64,000 nucleotides of DNA from a virus, in the IMG/VR virus record IMGVR_UViG_3300028920_000073. The stretch is one strand, 5' to 3'. Position numbers and translations under genes: made by a program. This document shows, one piece after another, positions 26,128 to 55,410 of the stretch. The notes under the pieces are model-generated. The model worked only from the letters and a program-made list of their open reading frames with translations. It did not search any database and had not been told where the DNA came from. Every line of letters begins with the position of its first letter. Positions within the stretch are counted from its first letter, which is position 1.

Positions 26128-26224
26128 ATTAAACAATAATTTTAAAAAAAATTAATAAGAAATAAAAGTTATTGTAAATGTTAGATTTTTTTAAATAAAC
26201 ATACAATCAACAAAGGAGAAAAAA

Positions 26225-26407
26225 ATGCCAAAAGGAAGAGGACAAGGTAGTTGCGGTGGTACACCAAGAAGAGACGGTTCTGGTGGTGGCATCGGAAATC
26301 GAGGAATAAAAAGAGGGGGACAAGGTAATTGTGATGGTATACCAAGAAGAGACGGTTCTGGTGGTGGCATCGGAAATCGAAATACAATAAATCAACCAAA
26401 AAAATAA
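26225..26407 (+). CDS. Gly/Arg-rich small protein with two 26-aa repeats
   Basis: SD AAGGAG; GQGxCxGxPRRDGSGGGIGNR x2. Confidence 0.7.
   Translation: MPKGRGQGSCGGTPRRDGSGGGIGNRGIKRGGQGNCDGIPRRDGSGGGIGNRNTINQPKK
26240..26380 (+). repeat. 78-nt-period tandem duplication
   Basis: 40-nt identical block at 26263-26302 and 26341-26380. Confidence 0.9.
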
Positions 26408-26420
26408 ATAAAAAATAAAT

Positions 26421-26465
26421 CTAGCCTACCTTCTATTTGACTTTTAAAATATGAAGGTAGGATAG
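26421..26465. terminator. Hairpin, possible terminator (U-tract only on - strand)
   Basis: CCTACCTTC 26425-33 / GAAGGTAGG 26453-61; A-rich tract upstream. Confidence 0.4.
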
Positions 26466-26506
26466 AAATATGATGAATATAATATCACAAAATCATAGGA
26501 ACATTT

Positions 26507-26761
26507 ATGAAAAACGGTCCCTTGACAGAAGGTAAAACAAAAAGCCAACATAAAAAAATTGAACACTTTGGTCTTGAACCTCCTCCACCACCTCCTCCTA
26601 GACCTACAGGTGAAATAATAATGGAAGGGTTTACTAAACCTCATAGAACACTGGGATCATTCATATCTAAATTATTTAAAAAAGAAGAAAATAATCAAGG
26701 TGGAGGATATCAACCTTTACCTAGAAAATATACAGGACAAACACCACCTTTTAAACCGTAA
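26507..26761 (+). CDS. Pro-rich small protein
   Basis: GPLTEGKTK...PPPPPPPRP. Confidence 0.65.
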   Translation: MKNGPLTEGKTKSQHKKIEHFGLEPPPPPPPRPTGEIIMEGFTKPHRTLGSFISKLFKKEENNQGGGYQPLPRKYTGQTPPFKP

Positions 26762-26762
26762 C

Positions 26763-27875
26763 AATTTAACCTGGAAGGAGCGTAACTATAAGGAGATATC
26801 ATGATTAGACAATTTATCGAATCAATCAAGGAGGAGAAAGAAGGTTATTCTTTTGACCGACCTTGGAGATTAGAAGAGAAGTCGCTAGGCGTAATTTTAC
26901 CTATTATTCGCAAAACGGATAAGAAACGAGATTACATCACTTTTGCAGAAGCTCAACAAATTAAAGTTGAGGATACAGGTCAAATAGATCATGTATATGT
27001 AAAAAATGATGAAGACAAGTCAGTGTTTATTTCAAGAGGTGAAATCTTTAGAGGTAAGACACAAGAACGAGCGGCAATTCACGGTTACATAATACCTTCA
27101 GGTAAAGGACTAAGAGTTGCTGTAAGATGTATTCATCAAAGTAAGGGAATATCAAGTGGAGCTGAAATGGAGTATGGTGGAAGAGCACCTTATTCTATAG
27201 ATTTTTCAGATCAAAGCAAAACTTGGAATACTGTACATCAATATAGTTCATCAGTAAGAGGAGAATCTACTCCAGAAACTCTTTGTTCTACAAATATAAG
27301 AGAGGGTGCTGTTTTGGATGATCTTGTTTTCGGATCAACTGGTGGACCCAACATACTGAGAACTATGGAAATGAATATGGGTGCTCAAGGACCACAAGGT
27401 AATATGGGTTCTCAAGGTATCCAAGGTTCTGATGACTTAGTGAATACAATAGGAGAGCTTTCAGGTTCAATAAAAGAGGCAATGAAAAGAATCCCTTTTA
27501 TTGAGAATCAAGCAGGAGCTATCTTTTTCAAAGAGAATGAACTTATGGGTATGGATGTTTATGACGTACCCGAATCATGGGATTCTGTAAAAAAGGATAT
27601 CGTGGAAAAAGAAGGTTCAGACTTTATGGAAAGAGAAGATGAAACAGAAATGTTTGAGTTTAAACCTGAAAAGGCAGTAGCTCTAGCAAAGAAAAAATTA
27701 TCCGTGGATTTTGAAGAAAAAGAAATTTACAACAAAGAATATAAAGTTGTAGAAATCAGATCTAAAAAGGTTCTCGGAGAAGCGACTATTTTTAATAACT
27801 GTGTTATTCATTTAACACTTTGGAAAAAACAATAATTAATTAATCATGCTCCTTTCAGGTTTCTTTAATTTAACC
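26763..27875 (+). mobile_element. Putative inserted gene cassette carrying ARPP-1 gene
   Basis: 9-bp direct repeat AATTTAACC at 26763 and 27867; 16-bp inverted repeat 26768-83/27846-61. Confidence 0.45.
26801..27835 (+). CDS. ARPP-1 (DUF6569-like) domain protein
   Basis: YITFAEA...VYVKN...VFISRGEIFRGKTQER...VRCIHQ pattern matches the family as recalled. Confidence 0.65.
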   Translation: MIRQFIESIKEEKEGYSFDRPWRLEEKSLGVILPIIRKTDKKRDYITFAEAQQIKVEDTGQIDHVYVKNDEDKSVFISRGEIFRGKTQERAAIHGYIIPSGKGLRVAVRCIHQSKGISSGAEMEYGGRAPYSIDFSDQSKTWNTVHQYSSSVRGESTPETLCSTNIREGAVLDDLVFGSTGGPNILRTMEMNMGAQGPQGNMGSQGIQGSDDLVNTIGELSGSIKEAMKRIPFIENQAGAIFFKENELMGMDVYDVPESWDSVKKDIVEKEGSDFMEREDETEMFEFKPEKAVALAKKKLSVDFEEKEIYNKEYKVVEIRSKKVLGEATIFNNCVIHLTLWKKQ

Positions 27876-27885
27876 GGAGAATACT

Positions 27886-28152
27886 ATGTTAGGTTTTTTT
27901 AAACAAAAAGATAAAAGAGATCATTTGGTTTATAGTGCCTTTATCTTTTTAACTTTTTTTATGCTTCTTAGAGAAAGTTATATATATGCTTCATTAATAA
28001 CAATTGTTATAGGAGTAGGAAAAGAAATATATGATAAAAACACACCTGGAAGAGAATGTGATATAAAAGATGTTATCGCAGATGCTTTAGGAATACTTTT
28101 AGGAATAATGATTTGTTATATAGGAAAACTACATTTTAGTTTTTTTAGTTAA
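27886..28152 (+). CDS. VanZ-like membrane protein
   Basis: DKRDH...GKEIYD...DVIADALG motif with TM helices. Confidence 0.7.
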   Translation: MLGFFKQKDKRDHLVYSAFIFLTFFMLLRESYIYASLITIVIGVGKEIYDKNTPGRECDIKDVIADALGILLGIMICYIGKLHFSFFS

Positions 28153-28195
28153 TAAATCTATATTATTTATATATAGAAAAAATACTGTAAAATAA

Positions 28196-28219
28196 TAACA
28201 CAACATCACAATAACACAG
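28196..28219 (+). promoter_or_regulatory. Three-unit TAACACAA-type leader
   Basis: TAACACAA|CATCACAA|TAACACAG then GAG SD. Confidence 0.55.
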
Positions 28220-28965: not shown

Positions 28966-29127
28966 ATGAATGTAAGAAGTTATATTCGTAAGGAATATGA
29001 AGAAATGAAATTGTATATTTTAAAAGAAAGAAAAAATAATTCAATCAAAAGTGATAACGATCTTGCTATTGAATGGGTTAGAAAATACGCTAAGGATTTT
29101 TCAGATAAAAACACAATAACACAATAA
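28966..29127 (+). CDS. Small hypothetical protein (53 aa)
   Basis: SD GGAGG; MNVRSYIRKEYEEMKLY...AIEWVRKYAKDF; stop falls inside the octamer array. Confidence 0.6.
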   Translation: MNVRSYIRKEYEEMKLYILKERKNNSIKSDNDLAIEWVRKYAKDFSDKNTITQ

Positions 29128-29150
29128 CACAATAACACAATAACACAATA
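29111..29150 (+). repeat. Perfect 5 x 8-bp tandem repeat (ACACAATA)
   Basis: Directly read; degenerate units continue to about 29163. Confidence 0.95.
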
Positions 29151-29852: not shown

Positions 29853-29862
29853 AAGGAGTTAA

Positions 29863-29888
29863 TATCCCCTCTAATTTTAGAGGGGATA
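29863..29888 (+). promoter_or_regulatory. 11-bp perfect hairpin covering the SD of the 29896 gene
   Basis: TATCCCCTCTA-ATTT-TAGAGGGGATA; ATG 8 nt downstream. Confidence 0.55.
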
Positions 29889-29895
29889 ATATGTT

Positions 29896-54294: not shown

Positions 54295-55410
54295 ATGAAC
54301 AGTCTTAACTTAGATGACTTTAAAGATATTGAGCTTGAAGAACAAGCTGAGGATGTTGTAGAGGATAATAATGAAGTAGGTGTTAAAATGGCATTTGTTG
54401 GTGGTGGACAATGTGGATGTCGTATAGCTGACACCTTTTATGATAAATTTGGATACAGAAGAGTATTATTGTTTAATACAACAAAAAAAGATATGGAAGG
54501 ATTAAAAACTCCTGAAGCTAATCAAGTTCTATCTGAAAAAACAGATGGTGCTGGTAAAGATTATAGTAAAGGAAGGAAAGCTATTGAACAATCTAAAAAC
54601 GAAGTACTTAAGGTGATGAAAAATAGATTTAAAGAAGGTATTGATAAAATTATGGTCTGTATAGGAGCAGGTGGTGGAACTGGATCTGGGACAGCTAAAA
54701 TTTTAGCGGATATATCTGAAGATTATCTATACAAACAAGGAATGGATAATGCAAAAAATAATATTGGTTTTATTGTTACGTTACCTGATAGATCTGAAGG
54801 ATCAATTGTTTTTAACAATGCATATAAAGTATTAAAAGATATTATAGGAAAAGGATACTCTCCTATAATGATATTAGATAATGCAAAAGTTACAAAAATG
54901 TTATCAGGACAAAATCTTACAGAAGCTAACAGATGGTTTATGATTAATAATGTTGCTTGCAAATTATTTGATATCTTTAACACTATCTCTGCACAACAAT
55001 CAAAATATACAAACTTTGATCCTACCGATTTAAAGGATGTTTATAATAGTGGTATAATAACTGTTGGTCTTACAAAACTTGAAAAAGTATCAAAGGATAC
55101 AGACATAGCTGATGCTCTTTATAAAAATCTTAAAAACAATCTTCTTGTAGAAGGATTAAGTATTAACAGTGCAACTCATGGAGCTGTAATAATAGCAACG
55201 GAAGAAGAAACAATTAAAAATATTCCTGCATCTTCAACAGATAACGCTTTTAACACTTTAATATCGATGATGAATGGTGGAGACACATCTAAAAAGGTTG
55301 CTTTACATAGAGGTGTATATGAAGCATCTGGATCTGGTATAACTGTTTTTTCAATGATTGGTGGATTTGAATTTCCACAAGATCGCTTAGATTCCTACAA
55401 AAGAGGTTAA
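54295..55410 (+). CDS. Tubulin/FtsZ-family GTPase (TubZ/PhuZ-like)
   Basis: T1 GGGQCG, T3 GAGKD, T4 GAGGGTGSG, T5 TLP..EG, T6 ILDN, T7 NFDPTD. Confidence 0.93.
   Translation: MNSLNLDDFKDIELEEQAEDVVEDNNEVGVKMAFVGGGQCGCRIADTFYDKFGYRRVLLFNTTKKDMEGLKTPEANQVLSEKTDGAGKDYSKGRKAIEQSKNEVLKVMKNRFKEGIDKIMVCIGAGGGTGSGTAKILADISEDYLYKQGMDNAKNNIGFIVTLPDRSEGSIVFNNAYKVLKDIIGKGYSPIMILDNAKVTKMLSGQNLTEANRWFMINNVACKLFDIFNTISAQQSKYTNFDPTDLKDVYNSGIITVGLTKLEKVSKDTDIADALYKNLKNNLLVEGLSINSATHGAVIIATEEETIKNIPASSTDNAFNTLISMMNGGDTSKKVALHRGVYEASGSGITVFSMIGGFEFPQDRLDSYKRG

Follow-up and report, generated by a model that had tools for sequence, protein, structure and literature searches.

Complementary arms recurrently bracket phage-borne ARPP-1 genes: a candidate long-range mRNA helix around a single cistron

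In rRNA operons, the sequences that flank the enclosed RNA pair into a duplex, a substrate of RNase III, where this RNA is released, and the polycistronic mRNAs of phages are commonly cut between cistrons, as at RNase III sites of the T7 type. To our knowledge, helices of kilobase range that enclose a whole protein-coding cistron have hardly been documented in phages or bacteria beyond small toxin mRNAs and rRNA precursors. In the hok mRNA, the 5' and 3' untranslated regions (UTRs) pair over a long distance, and this helix, known as tac/fbi, stabilizes the full-length message and controls its translation (PMC9841398). At the level of DNA, accessory genes of T4-type phages are bounded by structured repeats in the PeSL (early promoter-stem-loop) cassettes, and recombination gives mini-circles (PMC2839356, PMC4122927). 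Here we analyze a stretch of viral DNA of 64,000 nucleotides (nt) (IMG/VR record IMGVR_UViG_3300028920_000073; the whole stretch is hereinafter the window) in which a gene of the ARPP-1 family is bracketed by two complementary sequences, the 5' and 3' arms. This observation is confirmed as a local instance of a feature that recurs around ARPP-1 genes and, judging from sequence comparison, the arms probably, although by no means certainly, form a conserved long-range mRNA helix that insulates or stabilizes the ARPP-1 cistron and is possibly an RNase III site.

The ARPP-1 gene of the window, which would be enclosed by the helix, encodes 344 amino acids (aa) at positions 26801..27835 (on the + strand, as are the arms, direct repeats, Shine-Dalgarno (SD) sequence and neighboring genes described below) and matches PF20208 with an E-value of 3.4e-27. 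The 5' arm, AACCTGGAAGGAGCGT (26768..26783), lies 6 nt past the stop codon of the upstream gene, at a distance of 17 nt from the ATG of ARPP-1, and the 3' arm, ATGCTCCTTTCAGGTT (27846..27861), begins 10 nt past the ARPP-1 stop codon. Over 16 bases, the arms form 14 Watson-Crick pairs and 2 G-U pairs, both exceptions being a G in the left arm opposite a T in the right arm, i.e. G-U on the sense strand; a previous reading of the window from the sequence alone (hereinafter the sequence-only reading), which had reported arms at 26768-83 and 27846-61 with both imperfections of this kind, was correct in coordinates and letters. The SD sequence of ARPP-1, AAGGAG (26790..26795), is located between the 5' arm and the ATG, that is, inside the closed loop and outside the helix. 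The 5' arm itself includes a decoy SD-like AAGGAG and the 3' arm an anti-SD-like CTCCTT. Local folds of either spacer are not significant (z -1.3 for the 3' spacer), and the arm motif occurs at two places only in the 64 kb (0.09 expected), i.e. the search for further copies that had been proposed with the sequence-only reading yields none. To compare genes, we scored the best ungapped complementarity between the region -70..+15 around the start codon and the region -6..+90 around the stop codon. The flanks of ARPP-1 reach a z-score of 6.0-6.2 (p<=0.003 against shuffles), the highest among the 80 genes of the window, with the runner-up at 3.5.

The arms are accompanied by a 9-nt direct repeat, AATTTAACC, the left copy of which (26763..26771) overlaps the 5' arm by 4 nt and the right copy of which (27867..27875) lies 5 nt past the 3' arm and abuts the SD sequence of the downstream VanZ-like gene (GGAG, 27876-79, immediately 3' of the repeat). 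The repeat is indeed present twice, at 26763 and 27867, with a start-to-start distance of 1104 bp, and the products that had been predicted from it, namely a circle with the junction arm-TCTTTAATTT-arm and an empty site AATTTAACC-GGAG-AATACT-ATG, follow arithmetically from the sequence. Locally, the repeat is improbable (p about 0.008); it is either fortuitous or offers the 3' arm an alternative pairing partner close by, beside the VanZ ribosome-binding site, where AACC and GGAG (27872-79) could pair with this arm to form a weak alternative hairpin.

The first homologous locus that was fetched (L001) resides on a separate phage-like contig that also encodes DnaB, DUF968 and NT5C, and carries a perfect, GC-rich 13-bp pair, GACAGCCCGCGCC and GGCGCGGGCTGTC; a distance of 15 nt separates the 5' arm from the homologous ATG, and 7 nt separate the stop codon from the 3' arm. 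With the family alignment, 75 additional loci were fetched and subjected to the same flank test. Among 38 non-redundant, complete ARPP-1 loci from other metagenomes, 9 possess a bracket at p<=0.01 (z>4), compared to none of 200 control open reading frames (ORFs) of at least 100 aa from the same loci (Fisher's exact test, 2.8e-8). Five further lineages from Logan, fetched by exact protein look-up, served as a replication set: four of these (L077, L078, L081 and L082) score z 4.5-8.4 on the preset test, and the fifth (L079/L080), in which the 3' arm is separated from ARPP-1 by an extra 50-aa ORF, yielded a perfect 13-bp pair after the downstream search window was widened. In the protein tree, the bracket is found in 11 of the 21 rows of the well-supported clade to which the window protein belongs (a count that includes L018, a duplicate of L017 mislabeled as negative in the tree) and in all 3 rows of a second clade. 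Given that the window pair ranks first among 80 genes and that 9 of 38 ARPP-1 loci but 0 of 200 controls have a bracket, the arms are, by these comparisons, not a product of chance. The counts indicate a recurrent, ARPP-1-specific feature of one phage-borne clade and of a smaller second clade. The literature yielded nothing on repeats flanking ARPP-1 or on kilobase-range helices around phage genes.

The bracketed loci share a geometry and not a sequence: the arms are unrelated between lineages (e.g. TTTTGCTTTCGGGACAC, CTTCGGGCAGATTATTA, TTTTGTCAAGCATAGTAT, TTGAGAGCGCGGTTC and, in the window, AACCTGGAAGGAGCGT), the stems comprise 13-21 pairs and are near-perfect, 7-24 nt of unpaired spacer, which includes the SD sequence, separate the 5' arm from the ATG, the 3' arm begins 0-26 nt past the stop codon, and the enclosed unit measures about 1.05-1.25 kb. 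The position of the SD sequence inside the loop and outside the helix is common to the window and to L012, L013, L017, L021, L078 and L082. Neither a U-run after the 3' arm nor conserved arm termini were found in the bracketed loci. Flanking direct repeats are nominally significant in 3 of 13 loci, at differing positions and of low complexity, and not significant in the other 10; a repeat like that of the window, at a consistent position, is absent in the 12 further bracketed loci. Wherever reliable gene or ORF calls exist for a bracketed locus, the neighbors on both sides are co-oriented with ARPP-1 and close to it, and the 5' arm is therefore expected to be transcribed. In the window, the 17-nt spacer between arm and ATG leaves no room for a promoter. 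If the 5' arm itself is taken for a promoter, there are -35-like hexamers in some loci and no consistent -10 element. Directly 5' of the arm, L012 (2945-2960), L077 (1452-1470) and L078 (1452-1472) share a conserved GTTCTTTGAAA(A) block that contains the -35-like TTGAAA, upstream of which the sequences are unalignable; this block could be a promoter element or an additional part of the cis-element.

Comparison of related loci suggests that pairing, rather than sequence, is the property under selection. Within three related bracketed groups (L001/L081, L017/L079 and L047/L055/L057), the flanking genes are homologous, which implies vertical inheritance of the bracket down to about 60-70% protein identity. 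Between L012 and L077, four pairs are changed on both sides (A-U to G-C twice, G-U to C-G, and G-U to U-A), and there are two double changes in the arms of L017 versus L079 and at least one in those of L001 versus L081, to which L078 adds two U-G wobbles; a disruptive mismatch is represented by one C-A, in L081. Altogether, the predicted helix between 5'-UTR and 3'-UTR shows covariation in three lineage groups, along with wobble intermediates. For the full-length sequences of L012, L077 and L078, RNAalifold recovers the end-to-end helix, with pairs changed on both sides at columns 27/1095, 28/1094 and 32/1090. Among the transition mismatches in the stems, 10 are G-U and 3 are A-C on the sense strand (binomial p 0.046); when a doubtful 5-bp extension in the window is left out, the ratio is 10:1 (p 0.006). 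In full-length folds of the approximately 1.1-kb units, the end-to-end helix is part of the minimum free energy structure in all 12 loci, with a pair probability of about 1; these folds, which include the window arms 26768-83/27846-61, carry 16-47 long-range pairs, compared to a mean of 7.5 for 24 control genes, in which the longest helix has 11. As far as sequence comparison goes, both pairing and geometry are shown to be kept while the sequence changes between lineages.

The loci that lack the bracket offer a complementary observation. Within the clade of the window protein, bracket-negative loci have a strong local hairpin within 80 nt past the stop codon (median -18.5 kcal/mol), whereas bracket-positive loci have no strong hairpin in this position (median -4.5; Mann-Whitney p 0.0003). 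In this clade, one structure or the other, bracket or hairpin, follows the ARPP-1 stop codon, and several of the hairpins of the bracket-negative loci resemble intrinsic terminators. The window contains two solo intergenic hairpins elsewhere, one at 29860-29891 (TAATATCCCCTCTAA/TTAGAGGGGATAATA; 15-nt arms, 93% complementary, 2 nt apart) and one at 26415-26471 (19-nt arms, 84% complementary, 19 nt apart), and hence the phage also employs local structures between genes. For the joined arms themselves, the possibility of an intrinsic terminator was rejected, given the lack of a consistent U-run after the 3' arm; in L012 and L021, a T-run precedes the 5' arm. An archaeal bulge-helix-bulge splice site was rejected as well: the helices are continuous, with single-base bulges at most. 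A search of Rfam returned nothing relevant.

Under the helix interpretation, the leader just upstream of the ARPP-1 SD sequence would pair, in the polycistronic transcript, with the trailer just past the stop codon, and would thereby close the whole cistron, i.e. SD sequence, ORF and stop codon, into a loop of about 1.05 kb. Such a helix would do the job of the local hairpin of the relatives by providing a structured, exonuclease-resistant 3' boundary for the ARPP-1 message and, unlike the local hairpin, would add a paired 5' boundary. The stability and expression of ARPP-1 could in this way be insulated from those of the neighboring cistrons without termination of downstream transcription; given that co-oriented genes follow closely downstream, a non-terminating helix would fit better than a GC-rich hairpin with a U-run. 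A plausible additional step is a cut in the 13-21 bp duplex by a host enzyme of the RNase III type, which would yield an end-paired, monocistronic ARPP-1 mRNA. Ribosomes that terminate on ARPP-1 would extend into the start of the 3' arm and might modulate the helix. In the window only, the second AACC...GGAG copy might allow the 3' arm to toggle onto the VanZ ribosome-binding site.

Several points weigh against this interpretation. L013, L047 and the L012 group have -35-like sequences (TTGACA or TTGAAA) where the 5' arm begins, and if a promoter fires at the arm edge, ARPP-1 transcripts initiated there would lack the 5' arm, which would then be confined to read-through RNA. The bracket is missing from about half of the window's clade and from the remaining clades, which mostly have a higher G+C content, and the interpretation offers no reason why ARPP-1, of all gene families, would require a clamp. 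Classical RNase III substrates tend to be longer than the stems of 13-17 bp found in several loci. Covariation would be expected also if both arms bind one co-evolving protein, as terminal inverted repeats do. The excess of G-U is modest (10:3) and might partly reflect strand-biased mutation, which is conceivable given that the sense strand is purine-rich. Finally, all evidence for the helix comes from sequence comparison and predicted folds.

An extended version of the helix interpretation, which we regard as a long shot, is that the helix is a dedicated processing signal by which the ARPP-1 cistron is excised to persist as an end-paired or ligated, circular translatable mRNA, and that the protein may recognize or act on its RNA, for example on ribose ends, or else that ARPP-1 and its arms constitute a self-mobilizing single-gene element. 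RNA-repair-type contexts of the ARPP-1 family in other genomes may be invoked for a protein that acts on its own RNA. If the protein did act on its RNA, the clamp would be a part of an autoregulatory RNA-protein unit.

Of the alternatives at the DNA level, the one that survives best, although it appears unlikely, is a mobile cassette, in which the arms would be terminal inverted repeats or split half-sites similar to att or attC, served by an enzyme that is encoded elsewhere or is ARPP-1 itself. Such a cassette would account for the compact unit of about 1.05-1.25 kb, with one gene tightly bounded by inverted repeats as in insertion sequences, for the unrelated gene contexts of ARPP-1 in different phage lineages, and for the nucleotide conservation among L012, L077 and L078 that begins about 12 nt before the 5' arm and ends at the 3' arm; the locally improbable 9-bp direct repeat beside the window arms, the compact hairpin that the joined arms would form, like cassette recombination sites, and the covariation expected of arms that bind one protein are also compatible with it. 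However, among the 47 ORFs of the window that were scanned (44 of at least 150 aa, VanZ and two small zinc-finger-like ORFs), none matches an integrase, recombinase, transposase or RNase III family, in agreement with the sequence-only reading as to the lack of an integrase, and the ARPP protein has been predicted to act on sugars, with a Cys/Gln center, and not as a recombinase (PMC9503650). Moreover, the 13 loci have no consistent target-site duplications, the arm termini share no end sequence, each fetched locus has a single ARPP-1 match, the bracketed gene lies between homologous flanking genes in related phages, the imperfections are biased to G-U on the sense strand, and the local hairpin in bracket-negative relatives is not predicted by a transposon model. 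One assembled contig of the probable source run spans positions 26351 to 28216 without a break, across both arms. The joints expected for the empty site (26771>27876) and for the circle (27875>26772) are not listed among the assembled contigs, the resolution of which does not extend to rare circles, inversions or empty sites; the contig joints that are listed have short sides (20-24 nt) and are located elsewhere. The cassette inserted by site-specific recombination at the 9-mers that the sequence-only reading had put forward is accordingly disfavored, as no recombinase was found, the repeat does not recur and the flanks are homologous in related phages. Of the two possibilities which that reading had left side by side, the long-range RNA stem gains from the recurrence, the compensatory and wobble changes and the folds, and the integrated circle loses from the lack of a recombinase and from vertical inheritance.

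Somewhat more doubtful is the possibility that the bracket is an evolutionary relic, now without function, of the insertion of ARPP-1, once or repeatedly, at the loop of a palindrome or hairpin that was already present between genes. A break at the tip of a hairpin would leave half-stems on either side, and local targets would be expected to yield lineage-specific arms, without conserved element ends and target duplications, as is the case; the window phage does have solo intergenic hairpins of similar stem length (those at 29860-29891 and 26415-26471), and the gene-plus-hairpin order of the relatives is a circular permutation of half-stem, gene and half-stem. Unselected arms, however, should decay, yet compensatory and wobble changes keep the pairing at about 60-70% flank identity and several stems are still perfect over 13-17 bp; nor does random insertion into palindrome tips explain the specificity for ARPP-1 among 200 neighboring ORFs.

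A DNA switch or a pair of operators, that is, recombination sites of an invertible segment or two regulator sites that loop the DNA around the gene, appears still less probable. Inverted repeats of 13-21 bp around a segment of roughly 1 kb are the classical anatomy of invertible DNA, and in some loci the arms adjoin promoter-like hexamers, but the gene is co-oriented with its neighbors in every bracketed locus with reliable gene calls (in assembled contigs), no invertase is found among the 47 scanned ORFs of the window, the G-U bias is on the sense strand, and it is an RNA-type local hairpin that replaces the bracket in relatives. Taken together, the readings at the DNA level keep an appreciable minority share of the probability because covariation alone cannot separate an RNA helix from co-evolving protein-binding ends. 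Coincidence, whereby an anti-SD-like sequence in the spacer between ARPP-1 and VanZ, the normal role of which would be to mask the VanZ ribosome-binding site, fortuitously matches an SD-like sequence located 5' of ARPP-1, could draw on the AAGGAG/CTCCTT core of the arms, on the local pairing of the 3' arm with AACC...GGAG (27872-79) and on the selection of this pair as the best of 64 kb, but is highly improbable in view of the recurrence of the bracket across the family, with unrelated, non-SD sequences in about half of the window's ARPP-1 clade, and it is further opposed by the 14 Watson-Crick and 2 G-U pairs over 16 bases, the z-score of about 6, the first rank among 80 genes and the weakness of the local alternative fold (z -1.3).

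The enclosed protein is a clear member of its family: it matches Pfam PF20208 (DUF6569) with 96 bits (cut-off 27), with residues 32-341 aligned to profile positions 15-297 of 297. We identified 86 homologues at 33-64% identity, the nearest at 55-64%. An alignment of 33 sequences, including the window protein, contains 21 invariant residues, all definable on the window protein, among them C110, Q88, Q138 and Q237. Conserved Cys and Gln residues have been described for the ARPP family, which is considered a probable sugar-acting enzyme and occurs both as a component of ARG-centred conflict systems and together with HIRAN, WYL or deacetylase partners (PMC9503650); the genomic context ties the family to conflict systems involving ADP-ribose and nucleic acids (Iyer et al., 2022). 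None of the partners of the ARG-centred ARPP systems (ADP-ribosylglycohydrolase, rhodanese-phosphatase, HIRAN, WYL and deacetylase) is present beside the ARPP-1 gene of the window, which is a stand-alone phage copy, given that its neighbors encode a protein without a family and a VanZ-like protein. Across phage lineages, ARPP-1 occurs in unrelated gene contexts, and the window flanks have no homology to those of L001 or L012; in each fetched locus, there is one ARPP-1 match only. A scan of GTDB genomes with the family alignment produced no match, and a second scan of IMG/VR with another alignment produced no further ARPP-1 loci.

In L017 (3001-4047), L079 (1501-2541) and L080 (1460-2500), in-frame TGA codons of the ARPP-1 genes fall exactly on Trp residues that are invariant in the family (W142, W260 and the C-terminal LTLW), and the protein look-up flags these entries as 'with_TGA=W'; these phage contigs therefore read TGA as tryptophan (a code of the code 4 type), and they retain the bracket helix. 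Immediately upstream of the bracketed ARPP-1 gene of L081, on a 70-kb contig, a homologue of ribosomal protein bS21 is encoded (1257-1511; PF01165).

The window has 28% G+C and densely packed genes, most of them on one strand. Two sequencing runs of DNA, and none of RNA, were listed as containing its sequence, and the run that contains it in full is a marine-sediment metagenome. The gene content, which comprises terminase, portal and connector-type genes with LAGLIDADG inteins, the replication genes for a family A DNA polymerase, DnaB and a Toprim primase, and genes for a Dam methylase, MazG and a tubulin/FtsZ-like protein, is that of an uncultured tailed phage. The tubulin/FtsZ-family gene is located at 54295-55410 (PF00091, E 2.5e-15), and the distant protein matches of the window come from Erwinia and Burkholderia jumbo phages; for the 212-aa neighbor protein, tblastn against GenBank phages matched only distant jumbo phages. 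The FtsZ-family gene and these distant matches suggest that the window is a piece of a larger genome of the jumbo type. Neither megablast nor tblastn against GenBank phages detected a close relative of the window phage, and the same holds for scans of IMG/VR with ARPP-1, the 212-aa and 254-aa neighbors and the primase. A 233-aa neighbor has a single relative (67%), on a contig of 968 nt, and exact look-ups of the ARPP-1, VanZ and 84-aa proteins returned just two short contigs, with an arrangement identical to that of the window.

ARPP-1 sits in a series of small co-oriented genes, between an 84-aa proline-rich ORF without a family (26507..26761, the stop codon 6 nt before the 5' arm) and the 88-aa VanZ-like ORF (27886..28152; PF04892, E 2.2e-8). 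In a second assembly (an ENA contig, sample ERZ27252253), the ARPP-1 and VanZ proteins are identical to those of the window, and the upstream gene is called as 98 aa, its end lying 4 nt inside ARPP-1 (window 26507-26804). The start-to-start distance from the upstream gene to ARPP-1 is 293 nt there versus 294 in the window, which indicates a variant with a 1-nt indel, whose upstream ORF continues across the 5' arm and the SD sequence. At 26181-26410, the window contains a proline/glycine-type coding repeat that is present on both strands; the summed contig depth in the source run is 109 at this place versus about 55, and Logan contigs break at 26292/26351. The doubled depth and the breaks suggest that the region immediately 5' of the 84-aa gene is either repetitive or variable within the population. 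In addition, TAACACA is over-represented in the window (30 sites versus 13.6 expected), frequently just upstream of genes (e.g. at 28196, 28212, 29117-29147, 30661 and 32084); it does not precede ARPP-1, where the closest sequence is a TAACAAT variant at 26759-26765.

With ARPP-1, an experimentally uncharacterized enzyme family bears the clamp in many unrelated phage lineages. The bracket is thus a testable cis-regulatory element that bears on the question of how a phage operon insulates one cistron without ending transcription, and a handle on the timing and amount of ARPP-1 that are needed, and hence on the role of ARPP-1. The test of flank complementarity with neighboring genes as controls is applicable to all phage gene families. 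We consider the interest of the bracket moderate to high because it is specific, recurrent, covarying and directly testable.

Among the systems that mobilize or bound genes at the DNA level, integron cassettes and insertion sequences resemble the ARPP-1 locus in that a single compact ORF is bounded by inverted repeats or by an imperfect palindrome. In the window, however, neither an attC-type hairpin nor R and L boxes nor a tyrosine recombinase were recognized, and the 9-mer overlaps the left arm by 4 nt and lies 5 nt beyond the right arm, unlike a target duplication outside terminal inverted repeats; the only ORF of the unit is ARPP-1, present in a single copy per locus, and related phages share the flanks. 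The PeSLs are complete promoter-plus-stem-loop units that occur as direct repeats on both sides of genes and at many sites of a genome, whereas ARPP-1 has half a helix on each side, in inverted orientation, with a motif that occurs only twice in the window and no local stem-loop. Stabilizers of the REP (repetitive extragenic palindromic) type and terminator hairpins after morons place a stable structure right after the stop codon, as is found in the bracket-negative ARPP-1 relatives, and stabilizer or terminator hairpins after accessory phage genes appear to be the nearest analogy in position; in the bracket, by contrast, the partner strand comes from about 1 kb upstream and the 5' boundary is fixed too. 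In function, the nearest analogy would be the end-pairing of hok by tac/fbi, followed by the stalks of rRNA processing. As in hok, an end-to-end helix is predicted to close the whole message (in the window, from sequence and folds), but hok is monocistronic and encodes a small toxin peptide, and its helix joins the ends of this very transcript and, when closed, sequesters the SD sequence of mok, whereas the ARPP-1 loop of about 1.05 kb holds the gene of a 344-aa enzyme within a phage operon and leaves the SD sequence unpaired; no antisense RNA or toxin was recognized at the window locus, and there is no Rfam hit. The rRNA stalks enclose a non-coding RNA and the proposed ARPP-1 helix a coding gene, and the T7 sites are local hairpins, unlike the long-range ARPP-1 helix, several stems of which (13-17 bp) are below the typical substrate length. 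On this comparison, the ARPP-1 bracket would be a variant, newly found here, of the helices of mRNA end-pairing or processing.

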